Below are positions 6,663-11,955 of a stretch of 64,000 nucleotides of DNA, in pieces. Source of the DNA: an uncultured SAR86 cluster bacterium. Its GTDB lineage: Bacteria; Pseudomonadota; Gammaproteobacteria; Magnimaribacterales; D2472. Each line of letters opens with the position of its first letter. Positions within the stretch are counted from its first letter, which is position 1. The translations under genes and the position numbers were made by a program. The stretch is taken from assembly GCA_902547695.1 (NCBI GenBank), contig CACCOR010000005.1:17431-81430 (forward strand). The letters are read 5' to 3'. The notes beneath the pieces are model-generated. The model had not been told where the DNA came from. It did not search any database and saw only the letters and a program-made list of their open reading frames with translations.

Positions 6663-7031
6663 ATGAGATATTTATATACATTCATATTATTCTTATCATT
6701 TAATATTTCATCAGACAACTTATATTATTTTGAAGATGAGTATGATGAAAATAGATTTAATAATTTAATAAAAGATATAAGATGCCCTAAATGTACTTCT
6801 GGCTCTTTATCAAGTTCAAATGCTCCAATATCTGAAGATTTAAAAATCAAGATTGCAGAAATGATCAATGAAAACAAAACTGATCAAGAAATTAAAGACT
6901 ATGTTTCGTCAAGATTTGGACAAGATTCTTTATATGAACCTGAGTTAAATAATACAACCTATGTTTTATGGTATTCTCCATTCGTTTTTTTACTTTTAGC
7001 TTTTTTAATTTTTTTCTTTAGAAAAAAATAA
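6663..7031 (+). CDS. ccmH: Cytochrome c biogenesis protein CcmH
   Basis: IRCPKC motif and C-terminal LWYSP plus TM helix. Confidence 0.9.
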   Translation: MRYLYTFILFLSFNISSDNLYYFEDEYDENRFNNLIKDIRCPKCTSGSLSSSNAPISEDLKIKIAEMINENKTDQEIKDYVSSRFGQDSLYEPELNNTTYVLWYSPFVFLLLAFLIFFFRKK

Positions 7032-7816
7032 TGTTTATTTTTTATTTATTAACAATACTGGCTGCTTTGCCAATAATTGCTTATGTTTTGGCTCAAAAAA
7101 CCTTAAACAAAGGATTGATCTTTGGATCATCATTGTTAATCCTTTCCTTATGCCTATTTATATTTATAAGTAAATTTGCATTTGTTGGTTCCTTTGAAAA
7201 ACAAAAACTAAATAATAAAATTTTTGATGAAATTTATATTGACTCATCAATATCTGTTGAATATCTTCAACAACTAGAGAATATTCTTGATGAAGATGAA
7301 TTGAAGAATTGGCTATTAGGGCTAATTGGCAAATCAATAGATTTAAAGAAACTCAAGTCAGCTGAGAGTTTAATAGCTTTTTCAGAGAGATTCTTCATAT
7401 CAAATAATGAAAAACTTATCTTTTATAACTTATATTCTGCTTTAAGAGATGAGAAATTTCCTAAATTTAAGAACTCTAGTTTTCAGATAGACTCTAGTTC
7501 ATTGTATCCGTGCTCTATTAAAAATGTAGAAGTTACTCTTTTCATAACAAATGGTCCTGAAATACCGATTGCAAAAAAAGAATTCAAAAATAAAGATAAT
7601 ATTTCATTAAATAATCTTGATAGTGTGATACCTGGATTTGATTTAGCATCTGCATATTTAAATCAAGAATCTATTGAGATGAAAATCAAAATAAATTGCT
7701 TGGATGATCAGCAAACATTTTTTGTACAAAACATAATAGTTCTTAATCAAGATGTCCCCTCTAATTCATACAAAATTAATTTAAATGAATGGTTTAAAAC
7801 CCCACAAGAGTTATAA
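7031..7816 (+). CDS. Divergent CcmI/CycH-like protein
   Basis: Follows ccmH. Two N-terminal TM helices. C-terminal GPEIPIAKK...LNNLDSVIPGFDL resembles the CcmI GPxMPLA...LxDxxxMxPxxxL domain. Confidence 0.55.
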   Translation: MFIFYLLTILAALPIIAYVLAQKTLNKGLIFGSSLLILSLCLFIFISKFAFVGSFEKQKLNNKIFDEIYIDSSISVEYLQQLENILDEDELKNWLLGLIGKSIDLKKLKSAESLIAFSERFFISNNEKLIFYNLYSALRDEKFPKFKNSSFQIDSSSLYPCSIKNVEVTLFITNGPEIPIAKKEFKNKDNISLNNLDSVIPGFDLASAYLNQESIEMKIKINCLDDQQTFFVQNIIVLNQDVPSNSYKINLNEWFKTPQEL

Positions 7817-7841
7817 TAGTAGTATTAAATTGATTCTTTAA

Positions 7842-10040
7842 ATGCAGCTTAAACATATAAAACTTTCAGGTTTTAAAAGTTTCGTTGATCCAACGAAGAT
7901 ATCTTTCCCAACAAATATGGTTGGCGTTGTAGGTCCTAATGGTTGCGGAAAATCAAATGTAATTGATGCTGTTAGATGGGTGCTTGGTGAATTATCAGCA
8001 AAAAATCTACGAGGTGAATCAATGGTGGACGTAATCTTCAACGGTTCAGAGAACAGAAAGGCTTCTGGTCAATGCAGTATCGAGCTTTTATTTGATAACT
8101 CTAGTGCCAAAATTGGAGGAGAGTATGCGTCATTTAATGAAGTATCAATTAAAAGAGTTATGACAAGAGACGCTCAGTCTGATTATTTTATAAATAATAC
8201 GAAATGTAGAAGGAAAGATGTACAAGATATATTCCTTGGCACTGGTCTTGGACCAAGTTCTTATGCAATTATTGAACAGGGGATGGTCAGCAAGCTAGTA
8301 AGTGCAAAACCAGATGAGTTAAGAACGCATATTGAAGAAGCTGCAGGCGTATCAAAGTATAGAGAAAGAAGAAGAGAAACAGAATCTAGAATTAAAAGAA
8401 CCAGAGAAAATTTATCACGAGTAAAAGATATCAGAGATGAAATAGGAAGATTAATAAAGAGACTTGAGAATCAAGCAAAAGCCGCAGAAAAATATAATGT
8501 ACTTAAAAAAGATAAAGCAAAACTTGAACTAGATAAGGCCGTTCTTTTTTCTATTGAAGCCAAAAGTAGTAGAGATGATCTTCAAAAAAAATTAGACTCA
8601 CTAAACAGAGACTTGCAGATAAAAAATGCTGAATCTGAGACCATACAATCTCAAATAGATCAATTTAGAACCGAAAATGAATCTGTTCTAAGCGAATACG
8701 AAGAGGCTCAAAAGAATTTTTATGCAGTTGGTGCTGAAATAGCTAAAAGGGAAGCAAACCTTCAAAACATCAATAAAAACGAAAAAGAAACAAAGTCTAA
8801 TTTAGAAAAAGTAAAACAAAACTATGAAAAAGCTAAAGAAACTGAAAAGAATTTTGAAGAGTTAAGTCCAAGCGAAAAGGCAATGCATATTTTAGATAGT
8901 ATGATAAATACAATAGAGAAATATAGAATAAATAATGAAAATATAAGAGAAAAAGCGATTGAATTAAAGAGCTTACTTACAGATATACTTAATATAGCAA
9001 CTGCTCAATCAAAGACATTAACTGAGGAGTATTTATCAAGACAAAATGATCTTGAAGACCAAATTCTAAATGCTGAAAAATTGAAAAAGTCTATCGAAGA
9101 TGAAATGAGAGACTTTGTAGATAAAAGCTCTAGTGCTGAATCAGTTTTAGTTTCCCTTAGGCAAAAACAATCAAAATTTAATGAAGAGTTAAGAGAGTTT
9201 GAAAATAAAAAATCTATTGCAGATTTAGATGCTAGAACAATTTCTGAAAAGATCACAAATATAAGAATAGAGCAAAAAACTTACGAAATTAATTTAGATA
9301 ACTCAAACAAAAAAATTAAAGAAGCTGGAATAGACATAGATAAAATAGATTTTTCTGAATATGAAGACATGACTATTGAAGAGCTTGAAGACAAGCTGGT
9401 CAATATTGAGACAAAAATAATAAAATTAGGAGCCATTAATCTAGCTGCGCCAGAGGAAATTGAAGAGGAATCAAAAAGAAAAGAAGAGCTAGATGAACAA
9501 TATAATGACTTAACAGAAGCTTTAGAAAAGCTCACTGGTGCAATTAAGAAGATAGATCAAGAAACTAAAACAATTTTTAAGGAGAGTTTTGATTCTGTTA
9601 ACTTAAAACTAAAAGAGATGTTTCCAAAACTATTTGGTGGCGGGGTAGCTGAATTAACCTTAACTGAGGAGGATGCTTTAAATGCTGGTGTGATTTTAAT
9701 GGCAAGACCCCCTGGGAAGAAAAATTCATCAATATCTCAACTATCTGGTGGTGAAAAAGCCTTAACTGCATTGGCCTTAGTTTTTGCAATTTTTGACTTA
9801 AATCCAGCACCTTTTTGTTTGTTAGATGAAGTTGACGCTCCTCTAGATGACTTAAATACATTAAGATTCATAAATATGGTCGAGGAGATGTCAAAAACTG
9901 TTCAATTTATATTTATTACTCATAATAAAGTTTCAATGGAAAGAAGCGACTACCTTATGGGCGTGACAATGCAAGAGGCTGGAGTTTCAAGAATGGTATC
10001 AGTCGACGTAAATCAAGCTTTAGAATTAGCTGAATCCTAA
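7842..10040 (+). CDS. smc: Chromosome segregation protein SMC, unusually short (732 aa) with no recognisable hinge
   Basis: FKSF, Walker A GPNGCGKS, Q-loop IIEQG, LGAINLAAPEE, signature LSGGE, Walker B LLDEVD, ITH; lies upstream of zipA. Confidence 0.92.
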   Translation: MQLKHIKLSGFKSFVDPTKISFPTNMVGVVGPNGCGKSNVIDAVRWVLGELSAKNLRGESMVDVIFNGSENRKASGQCSIELLFDNSSAKIGGEYASFNEVSIKRVMTRDAQSDYFINNTKCRRKDVQDIFLGTGLGPSSYAIIEQGMVSKLVSAKPDELRTHIEEAAGVSKYRERRRETESRIKRTRENLSRVKDIRDEIGRLIKRLENQAKAAEKYNVLKKDKAKLELDKAVLFSIEAKSSRDDLQKKLDSLNRDLQIKNAESETIQSQIDQFRTENESVLSEYEEAQKNFYAVGAEIAKREANLQNINKNEKETKSNLEKVKQNYEKAKETEKNFEELSPSEKAMHILDSMINTIEKYRINNENIREKAIELKSLLTDILNIATAQSKTLTEEYLSRQNDLEDQILNAEKLKKSIEDEMRDFVDKSSSAESVLVSLRQKQSKFNEELREFENKKSIADLDARTISEKITNIRIEQKTYEINLDNSNKKIKEAGIDIDKIDFSEYEDMTIEELEDKLVNIETKIIKLGAINLAAPEEIEEESKRKEELDEQYNDLTEALEKLTGAIKKIDQETKTIFKESFDSVNLKLKEMFPKLFGGGVAELTLTEEDALNAGVILMARPPGKKNSSISQLSGGEKALTALALVFAIFDLNPAPFCLLDEVDAPLDDLNTLRFINMVEEMSKTVQFIFITHNKVSMERSDYLMGVTMQEAGVSRMVSVDVNQALELAES

Positions 10041-10664
10041 ATGAGCGTAAATTCAGAGATATATCTAATAGGACTGGCTATTTTGATATTTCTTATAATT
10101 ACTTTTTTGTTCATTAGAAAAGTCTCAAATGATGGTAAGTTAAAAGTTAAAATTGAGAAAGTCCAAGATTCATCCGATTTAAATATTTCAGATGAGCCAC
10201 ATAAAAATCAACAATCTTTTGATTTTGAAATAAATCAGTCAAAAGAACAGGAATTAGTAATACTAAATTTAATTTCTATGGATAGATCTATGTTTGACAT
10301 GGATCAATTGTTTGATTTTTTATCAAATTATGGAGCAAAAACTGTGAATAATTATTTTGCTTTTTATCAAGATAATAAACTAGAAAAATTTCGGGTTATA
10401 AACGCTTTAAAACCAGGAACTTTTGAAGATGAAACTAAATCATTTGCAATTGCAGTTGTATCTGATTTAAATGTTGTAGATGATCCTTTAAATACAGTGA
10501 AACAAATGATCGAATTTTCAATTAATTTTGCAGAAAAATTTTATGCAACACTTTGTGATCAAGATAGAACTCCAATAACAAAACAAATGATCTCACACAT
10601 AGAGTCTAGAGCTCAAGATATAGCAAGATTAAAACAACTAAATATTTCTGATGAGGAAAATTAA
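10041..10664 (+). CDS. zipA: Cell division protein ZipA (short form)
   Basis: N-terminal TM helix, short linker, C-terminal domain with NALKPGTF and LCDQDRTPITKQ; conserved position after smc. Confidence 0.78.
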   Translation: MSVNSEIYLIGLAILIFLIITFLFIRKVSNDGKLKVKIEKVQDSSDLNISDEPHKNQQSFDFEINQSKEQELVILNLISMDRSMFDMDQLFDFLSNYGAKTVNNYFAFYQDNKLEKFRVINALKPGTFEDETKSFAIAVVSDLNVVDDPLNTVKQMIEFSINFAEKFYATLCDQDRTPITKQMISHIESRAQDIARLKQLNISDEEN

Positions 10665-10668
10665 ATAA

Positions 10669-11955
10669 ATGATAGAACCTTGGAAGATTATTGTAGAACT
10701 TGAAAGTGATAACAGTCGATTGTTTAAAGAGGGAGTAATAGAAAAGTTCCTTAACGATAAAACCTTTCAAGAGGGGCTTGTTATGTGTTTAGATCCTTTG
10801 ACTACATTTGGAGTTAAACAAGTACCAGAATGCATTGAAGATGGAGCAGGTCTAGATTGGAGTGATTTTAAAAAAGCTGCAAATCAATTAATAGATAGAG
10901 ACAAAACTGGCCATGCTGCAAGAGATTTGATTATTGAATTAATTGAGTCATCAAAGACAGATCAGTGGAATGATTGGTATAGAAGAATTCTCATCAAGGA
11001 CCTAAGATGTGGAGTAAGTGAAAAGACAGTAAATAACGTTGCAAAAAAAATGGACTTGGAATTCAGAGTACCTATTTTTTCATGCATGTTAGCTCATGAT
11101 GGCGCTAAGCATCCAAAAAAAATTAGAGGCGATTGTTTGGTAGAGTACAAATATGATGGTGTAAGAGTTATTGCGATTGTTAAAAATGGAAGGGCTACTT
11201 TATACAGTCGAAATGGAAAGATATTTAACAATTTTCCACATATTGAAAGCGCTCTAAGTAAAAAAGAATTTAATAATCTTGTTTTCGATGGAGAGGTGAT
11301 GAGCGATGATTTTCAGGCTTTAATGAAACAAGTTTATAGAAAATCTGGAGCAAAAACTGACGATGCTTATCTTGCTTTGTTTGATATTCTTCCACTCAAA
11401 GAATTTAATAATGGAAAAAGTATACTAACTTCAATTGAAAGAAAAGAACAACTTAATGAATTAGCTAAATTATTTGATGATGCAATAAAGCTTGTAGATT
11501 ATGAAATTATTAACTTTGATAATGATGATGGAAAAGCTAAATTTTCTAATATGAACAAAGAAGCACTTGAAAAAGGCTTTGAAGGCCTAATGATTAAACC
11601 GAATGATAATTTTTATGAGTGTAAAAGAAGTCATGCTTGGTTAAAAATTAAACCTTTCATTGAGGTAACGCTTAAGGTTATTGATATTCAAGAGGGGTCA
11701 GGGAAGCATGAGGGTAAGTTAGGTGCATTTCATGTAGAAGGCAAAGATGATGGTAAGTTCTTTTCTTTAAGTGTTGGAAGTGGCCTTACTGATGATGACA
11801 GAGAAAGATTTTGGGCTGCTAAAGATAAACTTATTGGAAGAATGGTAGAAATTAGAGCAGATGCTATAACTCAAAGTATTGAGGGCGAGCACTATAGCTT
11901 AAGATTTCCAAGATTTAAAAACTTTAGAGGATTTAAAGAGGATGAAAAGATTTAA
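10669..11955 (+). CDS. ATP-dependent DNA ligase (phage-type architecture)
   Basis: Motif I EYKYDGVR, III FDGE, IIIa LFDIL, IV EGLMIK, V WLKIK, OB-domain VGSGL and VI LRFPRF. No Zn finger, HhH or BRCT domain as in LigA. Confidence 0.93.
   Translation: MIEPWKIIVELESDNSRLFKEGVIEKFLNDKTFQEGLVMCLDPLTTFGVKQVPECIEDGAGLDWSDFKKAANQLIDRDKTGHAARDLIIELIESSKTDQWNDWYRRILIKDLRCGVSEKTVNNVAKKMDLEFRVPIFSCMLAHDGAKHPKKIRGDCLVEYKYDGVRVIAIVKNGRATLYSRNGKIFNNFPHIESALSKKEFNNLVFDGEVMSDDFQALMKQVYRKSGAKTDDAYLALFDILPLKEFNNGKSILTSIERKEQLNELAKLFDDAIKLVDYEIINFDNDDGKAKFSNMNKEALEKGFEGLMIKPNDNFYECKRSHAWLKIKPFIEVTLKVIDIQEGSGKHEGKLGAFHVEGKDDGKFFSLSVGSGLTDDDRERFWAAKDKLIGRMVEIRADAITQSIEGEHYSLRFPRFKNFRGFKEDEKI

Follow-up and report, generated by a model that had tools for sequence, protein, structure and literature searches.

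Can a bacterial Smc protein do without its hinge? Few features of SMC complexes are as conserved as the hinge and the ~50-nm arm, and both have a role in current models of how these complexes load onto DNA and extrude loops. This question is raised by a gene at positions 7842-10040 of a 64,000-nucleotide stretch of DNA (hereafter the window) from contig CACCOR010000005.1 of an uncultured SAR86 cluster bacterium (order Magnimaribacterales), which encodes a Smc-like protein of only 732 amino acids. We consider it probable that this protein belongs to a working Smc-ScpAB complex with short arms, in which the hinge has been replaced by a helical-bundle tip that pairs. One part of this reading is held with much greater confidence, namely that a complete Smc head and proximal arm have been kept, and the hinge and distal arm are absent, throughout the order, together with ScpAB and under purifying selection.

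The head, the arms and the central segment

Positions 7842-10040 on the forward strand form a single stop-free open reading frame (ORF) that begins with ATG, as established from the ORF listing and its translation. An initial annotation of the window had described an uninterrupted frame with all SMC head motifs intact, and this description holds. The translation contains the Walker A motif (GPNGCGKSN, residues 31-39), the Q-loop (Q146), the signature motif (LSGGEK, 634-639), Walker B (LLDEVD, 660-665) and H694, and these ABC-type motifs are invariant in an alignment of 29 family sequences. The parts of the gene, with the evidence used to delimit each, are as follows.

7842..10040, forward strand, stop codon included: smc, short and hinge-less (ORF; TIGR02168, 813 bits; SMC_N, 1.2e-57)
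7842..8345, forward strand: N-terminal head lobe, residues 1-168 (Walker A 31-39, R57 and Q146; invariant columns; AlphaFold2 strand/helix pattern; Smc-head fold matches)
8352..8843, forward strand: N-terminal arm helix, residues 171-334, 164 amino acids or about half a canonical strand (AlphaFold2; alignment of 1-329 to Porticoccus Smc)
8844..9041, forward strand: apex element, residues 335-400, comprising a loop with a conserved LSP motif, the 17-amino-acid helix a2 (344-360), a turn and the first half of helix a3 (AlphaFold2; without counterpart in full-length Smc; predicted interface; conserved hydrophobics; dN/dS, the ratio of nonsynonymous to synonymous substitution rates, 0.10)
9042..9521, forward strand: C-terminal arm strand, residues 401-560, with joint-like helix breaks near the head at 495-511 and 530-535 (AlphaFold2; alignment of 395-732; 5xei fold match)
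9522..10037, forward strand: C-terminal head lobe, residues 561-732 (LSGGEK 634-639, Walker B 660-665 and H694; AlphaFold2; Smc-head fold matches)

Profile and fold searches agree on the identity of the head. The bacterial Smc model TIGR02168 (NCBIfam) is matched with 813.1 bits, above its cut-off of 567.35, but the match is split in two, with residues 2-389 corresponding to profile positions 1-384 and the C-terminal part to positions ~853-1181 of 1181. A Pfam scan yields one SMC_N match (1.2e-57) that extends over residues 3-716 and comprises the two head halves. When the predicted structure was used in a fold search, the top matches were prokaryotic Smc heads with coiled coil and joint (5xei, E 5.4e-27), and the first Rad50 structure appeared only at rank 14. 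Judged by its sequence, the 732-amino-acid protein is a true smc orthologue of its order.

The region between the two head lobes departs from that of other Smc proteins. No SMC_hinge domain (PF06470) was matched in the protein by a Pfam search even at E<=1, nor was one matched elsewhere in the window's own genome, a metagenome-assembled genome (MAG) of 1.01 Mb in 30 contigs that is 75% complete. Glycines occur at positions ...202, 297, 496, 530..., with none between 297 and 496, and cysteines occur only at 35, 78, 122 and 659, leaving no central CxxC; the initial annotation had stated both absences correctly. It had also pointed to a middle segment of ~60 amino acids with a helical look at nucleotides ~8865-9045. 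This segment, SPSEKAMHILD...EEYLSRQ, corresponds to residues 342-401 (nucleotides 8865-9044), includes the sole proline between residues 158 and 536 (Pro343), and is predicted to be helical by AlphaFold2.

The extent of the missing part was established by comparison with the 1166-amino-acid Smc of Porticoccus litoralis, which carries an SMC_hinge match at its residues 524-619. Residues 1-329 of the short Smc align to residues 1-329 of this reference, and residues 395-732 align to residues 829-1166. Reference residues 330-828 are absent, and the ~65 intervening residues of the short protein are without clear counterpart. Because the alignment matches only the two ends, ~500 residues comprising the hinge and the distal half of each arm strand are replaced by ~65 amino acids, and the aligned end points place the cut in both arm strands at approximately the same arm level. 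An arm strand is thus 164 amino acids long, compared with ~330-345 in canonical bacterial Smc.

An AlphaFold2 monomer model, prepared with the 29-sequence family alignment, has a mean predicted local distance difference test score (pLDDT) of 75.7, with 59-73 in the apex blocks. The model consists of an N-terminal arm helix (171-334), a loop (335-343), a helix (344-360), a turn (361-365) and a long helix (366-494), followed near the head by a break (495-511), helices at 512-529 and 536-598, and the C-terminal head lobe. There is no beta structure between the head lobes in this model. The Smc of another family of the order, f4, is 46% identical and has a different tip sequence with a FWxxGYxxGxGE-like motif. 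Its model nevertheless contains a helix (170-339), a loop, a 17-amino-acid helix (347-363), a loop, a helix (370-391), a short break and a further helix (396-505). The modelled tips of f4 (apex pLDDT 48-64) and of the window's family (f1) therefore share one order of elements: loop, 17-amino-acid helix, turn, long helix. The apex is also distinct in composition, with the residues ILMFVWY making up 0.31-0.35 of it (0.23-0.27 in the arms) and DEKR 0.29-0.31 (0.41-0.45 in the arms).

Two candidate traces of a hinge were rejected. Apex alignments of families f1, f4 and f3 were compared by hhalign with residues 300-860 of 62 full-length gammaproteobacterial Smc proteins; the f4 query was clean, the f1 columns were inflated by the longer Smc of a relative (L043, described below), and the motif-based cut of f3 was off. 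The best probability was 7%, and every match lay in coiled-coil parts. In addition, MAFFT set residues 379-394 opposite the start of the hinge, but homology there was without any support and the placement was dropped.

Distribution, origin and selection of the short form

Independent assemblies reproduce the gene. In a comparison of contigs from four sequencing runs (X2, X5, X15 and X16), a metagenome DNA contig of 8606 nucleotides from run X2 runs from 7700 to 10200 without gap or joint and shows 9 differences, and a DNA contig from run X5, with one difference, extends over 8781-9224. RNA-library contigs account for 8118-8916 and 8985-9570 (X15) and for 8879-9805 (X16), again without joints. 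At least 75% of sampled smc words were recovered in 14 DNA runs belonging to 9 studies, and 33-46% in 6 RNA-library runs from 4 studies. Of these 14 DNA runs, one, X10, is labelled freshwater metagenome, a label that is no evidence of habitat; the others all carry marine or seawater labels.

Database proteins have the same form. In a protein search with residues 300-470, 1968 of 4485 candidates reached E<=0.001; the best 120 of these are 96-100% identical to the query and come from contigs of up to 1.37 Mb, and 117 of the 120 are 732 amino acids long. With the window Smc as query, matches were obtained in 36 of 41 related genomes, including 21 of the 22 of high quality. The TIGR02168 model at E<=1e-60 detects smc in 54 of 57 high-quality genomes of the order, and every listed frame measures 729-1006 amino acids. 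Short forms occur throughout the four families of the order, in the following length ranges.

Window's family, genera g1, g10, g12, g13 and g15: Smc of 729-745 amino acids
Window's family, genera g11 and g14: Smc of 998-1006 amino acids (5 of 5 high-quality genomes each)
Family f4: Smc of 733-759 amino acids
Family f3: Smc of 809-817 amino acids
Family f2: Smc of 825-843 amino acids

The possibility that close relatives carry a full-length smc was thus checked, and close and distant relatives within the order alike were found to be short. The 62 full-length Smc proteins from other gammaproteobacteria measure 1156-1173 amino acids, and 139 of the best 150 cluster representatives from a library of 1.84 billion proteins measure 1110-1220. 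SMC_hinge was found above its cut-off in none of 121 genomes of the order by a search that was positive in 10 of 14 control genomes; four of the 121 gave chance-level matches (E 0.025-0.09) in unrelated frames of 274-290 amino acids. The proposal in the initial annotation that the hinge had been lost or replaced is therefore borne out for the protein, which shows neither a SMC_hinge match nor a hinge fold, and for the order as searched. The hosts, with genomes of 0.9-1.8 Mb, constitute an order of small-genome, low-GC, abundant marine Gammaproteobacteria.

Two trees were computed by quick searches under LG+G4, and long branches and skewed composition are to be noted in the short clade. The first has 93 rows and uses the first 320 and last 330 residues only; in it the 30 true short forms all fall in one clade with a Shimodaira-Hasegawa-like approximate likelihood ratio (SH-aLRT) of 99, adjoining the full-length Smc of Porticoccaceae, Cellvibrionaceae, Halieaceae and others. 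Rows with X, rows of <720 amino acids and rows of 841-989 or 1001-1149 amino acids, which were treated as contig-end cuts, were left out of this tree. A 31st row labelled short, L064_771, is a contig-end fragment of a Halioglobus Smc, and counting it yields 2 changes for 31 rows. The second tree, of 79 rows, with 11 short rows from loci, 6 added database proteins and the rows of 1001-1149 amino acids left out, again places its 13 short rows in one clade (SH-aLRT 99). Such a clade points to a single origin. The change probably dates back to the order's common ancestor, where an all-helical tip of ~65 residues took the place of the entire alpha/beta hinge and the distal half of each strand (~500 residues).

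The ~1000-amino-acid forms inside the short clade are secondary. The 996-amino-acid Smc of the relative L043 (6001-8988 of its locus, forward strand) nests in the window's family beside a 727-amino-acid form in the 93-row tree. A diagonal scan reveals a tandem duplication of ~120 residues in its N strand (271-350 versus 391-470; 36 of 110 identical) and one of 143 residues in its C strand (506-665 versus 649-808; 64 of 160 identical). Self-BLAST of this protein returned the identity match only, and the diagonal scan found no internal repeat above threshold in the forms of 732, 733, 810, 826 and 1166 amino acids. Because the two duplications account for 264 extra residues, both strands of the L043 protein have been lengthened by matched amounts, which argues for an arm that works as a coiled coil and for selection on its length. 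Two genera of the window's family have re-lengthened both strands to ~1000 amino acids by tandem duplication, and arm length is both under selection and changeable.

A search for partners, which the initial annotation had advised, was successful. Adjacent scpA and scpB genes lie on another contig (C24) of the window's own genome, and parB is present as well. In the order, ScpA and ScpB are each found in 112 of 121 genomes and in 55 of 55 of high quality. The MukB-type head (PF04310) is absent among the Pfam matches of the protein and has no match in the own genome (75% complete), where a search with the window Smc also found no second SMC-like gene and the RecN family model found no match. RecN and SbcC may have been lost from this genome, of which absences at 75% completeness give only a hint.

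The rates of substitution among 11 sequences of the genus indicate constraint along the whole gene. The median pairwise dN/dS is 0.047 for smc as a whole and 0.016 for the N-terminal head lobe, 0.059 for the N arm, 0.101 for the apex, 0.085 for the C arm and 0.031 for the C-terminal head lobe, although these values are rough because dS is saturated (1.4-1.9). On these sequence comparisons, smc is under purifying selection, apex included.

Predicted pairing at the tip and competing explanations

We used structure prediction to evaluate whether two short Smc proteins might pair through their tips. Predictions with two copies of residues 285-432 gave interface scores (ipSAE) of 0.55, 0.55 and 0.56, compared with 0.01 for the best of three controls. 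This mark was reached by 20 of 30 solved homodimers and 1 of 23 solved single chains, a calibration that with a custom alignment is only rough, such that up to 19 of 100 single chains may reach it. The runs share at least 90% of their contacts, partner pLDDT is at least 77, and the predicted interface is confined to residues 331-400, with the flanks 285-330 and 401-432 outside. Because residues 363, 379, 382, 386 and 389 each contact the same residue of the partner, the two a3 helices are predicted to be parallel and in register. Helix a2 (344-360) is placed antiparallel on the partner's a3, with residue 354, for example, near residues 368, 371, 372 and 375. The interface residues I350, L351, M/I354, I358, I363, I368, L375, L378, L379, I382, I385 and Y397 are conserved in 14 f1 sequences.

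Our reading of these models is that the tip would form a four-helix bundle, with the two arms pointing away from it to the same side as in the rod form of Smc. The initial annotation had suggested a small helical dimerisation element, and this suggestion gains support from the controlled homodimer prediction and from the conserved hydrophobic residues of its interface. We judge the chances to be slightly in favour of such pairing. Two Smc hairpins would then pair at the tip, a3 running parallel with a3' and a2 lying antiparallel on a3', and ScpA would bridge the heads to give a closed ring or rod. A coiled-coil helix rises by ~0.15 nm per residue, and 164 residues at ~0.15 nm each would make an arm of ~25 nm rather than ~50 nm. 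ParB would load the complex at parS, and cycles of ATP would move it along DNA in the manner of ordinary Smc-ScpAB, though its lumen and reach would be smaller.

Several points weigh against this proposal. Dimerisation as predicted rests on one structure predictor with a custom 26-row alignment, and such models easily set helical hairpins side by side. The apex has the lowest pLDDT of the arm region in the monomer models of both f1 and f4. From one family of the order to the next, its sequence shows little conservation, so that a pairing mode common to the whole order would be no more than a possibility; the prediction covers the f1 apex. The saturation of dS belongs here as well, and contigs from RNA libraries are no proof of smc transcription. 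Absences from the own genome count for little because that genome is only 75% complete. Lastly, the length classes of ~810-840 and ~1000 amino acids fit the ~91-amino-acid period of B. subtilis, as given in the portions of PMC5344682 considered here, in no obvious way.

In one alternative the tips are unpaired, and monomeric hairpins are joined only by ATP-engaged heads and ScpA in an open tweezer, which would clamp DNA at the heads without topological entrapment. The lack of a hinge and of a zinc hook is compatible with such an arrangement, as are the modest apex pLDDT and the strong differences of the apex between families, which would be expected of a mere cap. However, a mere cap needs no extra 17-amino-acid helix, yet this helix is kept in f1 and f4; hydrophobic residues are frequent in the apex, which is also conserved inside the family and subject to purifying selection; and the predicted homodimer scored well above its controls, with all of its interface in the tip. 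We therefore regard the unpaired arrangement as unlikely. The gene might instead be a decaying or re-purposed relic that does no condensin work, for example a DNA-stimulated ATPase or a protein with a repair role that replaces RecN. Genome streamlining is evident in the order, and RecN was not found in the own genome, but a relic is difficult to reconcile with the strong purifying selection on heads and arms, with the retention of smc in nearly all high-quality genomes and of ScpA and ScpB in every one, and with the matched re-lengthening of both strands in two genera, which implies a functional arm. This explanation appears very improbable to us.

Two further explanations have been refuted, and we give them practically no weight. 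An assembly collapse or a strain-specific deletion in one MAG would be conceivable for a 30-contig source of this completeness, and a mis-assembly at the apex was an explicit concern of the initial annotation; the independent contigs from other studies nevertheless cross the gene without joints, all but three of the 120 closest proteins listed have the same length, and relatives in four families are short. The other is that a different SMC-like ATPase (RecN, SbcC/Rad50 or MukB/MksB) sits at the smc locus. In its length and all-helical middle the protein is indeed nearer to RecN or Rad50 than to Smc. However, the RecN model TIGR00634 scores 37 bits against a cut-off of 407.85, Rad50 models score 33-50 bits against cut-offs of 700-1087, and there is no CxxC. 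MukB was not found in the own genome, whereas ScpAB is present there. The heads nest within gammaproteobacterial Smc in the tree, and profile scores, tree and fold ranking alike separate them from RecN and SbcC. A short-armed Smc-ScpAB with a pairing helical tip accordingly stays our preferred reading.

Known systems, wider meaning and neighbouring genes

The short Smc shares with bacterial Smc (B. subtilis Smc, TIGR02168) the head, the head-proximal arm, the smc-zipA-ligase locus and the partners ScpA/ScpB and ParB, and differs from it in having an arm strand of 164 instead of ~335 amino acids and a helical tip of ~65 amino acids, without a PF06470 hinge or a Gly-rich motif. RecN pairs through the tip of its coiled coil. 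RecN and Rad50/SbcC resemble the short Smc in their SMC-like heads, antiparallel coiled coil and lack of a globular hinge, but their family scores lie far below cut-off, CxxC is missing, and the heads are those of Smc by tree and fold ranking.

Hinge-less SMC proteins as a kind are already in print. An ocean-metagenome study (PMC12153180; Environ Microbiome 2025) described an abundant 'hinge-less' SMC cluster in Actinomycetes, without CxxC and apart from Rad50/SbcC by structure comparison. The different architecture proposed in the initial annotation is supported as regards a hinge-less short Smc, but as a kind it has a precedent; loop extrusion by the short form may differ too. Both clades are ocean-abundant, are predicted to be without hinge and zinc hook, and have kept Smc-type heads, but the published one belongs to Actinomycetes, whereas the one described here is gammaproteobacterial by tree and synteny. 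On the basis of the published description, ours looks like a separate case. A 732-amino-acid protein would not directly pass the retrieval in PMC12153180, because 80% mutual coverage to seeds of ~1200 amino acids was required. In the sections of that article considered here, partners, arm length, tip pairing and re-lengthening are not described for the actinobacterial clade.

Engineered proteins provide a second precedent. Buermann et al. 2017 (PMC5344682) reported that B. subtilis Smc is functional with its hinge exchanged for a Rad50 zinc hook, and that arms shortened to 253-267 amino acids still work. These Mini-Smc and Smc(Zn-hook) chimeras likewise combine short arms with a small foreign dimer element and can function, but they are laboratory-made and, as described in the parts of the paper used here, have arms of at least ~250 amino acids, whereas the present protein is natural, with arms of ~164 amino acids and a helical tip without zinc ligands. 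The same work gives prokaryotic arm-length modes of 238, 341 and 515 amino acids, minor modes of 163 and 423, and a ~91-amino-acid period for B. subtilis; the 164-amino-acid arm is near the minor 163-amino-acid mode. A full-text literature search found no paper on the gammaproteobacterial short-Smc clade, although the supplements of PMC12153180 and PMC5344682 may bear on novelty. As far as this search reaches, the new elements are the order-wide case with half-length arms, the kept partners, the predicted pairing tip and the re-lengthening by paired duplications.

An order that keeps Smc, ScpA and ScpB under selection, yet has dropped the hinge and half of the arm, constitutes a natural experiment. 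One question that it poses is whether ring closure by any small dimer element suffices, as the B. subtilis zinc-hook chimera suggested, and another concerns the relation between the length of the arm and its function. A comparative series for biochemistry is offered by the three length classes within one order (~730, ~810-840 and ~1000 amino acids), along with the paired duplications from which the longest arose. More tentatively, and with some doubt, we propose that hinge loss and arm shortening could be an adaptive change that Smc-ScpAB has undergone repeatedly in streamlined ocean plankton. This change would have arisen independently in this order, in the actinobacterial clade and in the lineage of a protein designated P0195, each time with a new small helical tip to close the ring and with arm length then tuned up or down by paired duplications. 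If this were true, the conserved hinge would be dispensable in nature, and arm length would scale with genome or cell size.

The protein P0195 is a low-complexity, K/N/E-rich Smc of 906 amino acids without a hinge match that falls outside the short clade. In the 79-row tree it sits weakly beside a hinge-bearing protein of 1003 amino acids (SH-aLRT 72; both on long branches). Both P0228 (1003 amino acids) and P0252 (990 amino acids) carry hinges. A search of 400 genomes of the class at E<=1e-220 brought up no close relative of P0195, an empty result that shows nothing. P0195 may represent a further independent hinge loss.

The gene order at the locus is ccmE/F, a redoxin-family gene, ccmH, a 261-amino-acid ORF, smc, zipA, a DNA ligase gene and an SLT transglycosylase gene. 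The sequence smc-zipA-ligase is the usual gammaproteobacterial arrangement, and the relative L043 shares this gene order. The immediate neighbours of smc are listed below.

7031..7816, forward strand: 261-amino-acid ORF between ccmH and smc, with length and position kept in L043
10041..10664, forward strand: zipA, directly 3' of smc (ZipA_C, 6.7e-12; same order in L043; context only)
10669..11955, forward strand: 428-amino-acid ATP-dependent DNA ligase (PF01068 and an OB_2 domain), just 3' of smc-zipA

The 261-amino-acid ORF has no Pfam match at E<=0.001 and could be the final gene of the cytochrome c maturation cluster in a divergent form. Where the window carries the ATP-dependent ligase, relatives have an NAD-dependent ligA, which in L043 encodes 725 amino acids. 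The NAD-ligase model TIGR00575 has no match in the window's own genome at its 75% completeness; among high-quality genomes it likewise has none in genera g1 (0 of 7), g10 (0 of 1) and g11 (0 of 5), but 41 of the 57 in the whole order do have a match. It seems that the ATP-dependent ligase has taken the place, at the same locus, of the NAD+ ligase that nearly all bacteria have.

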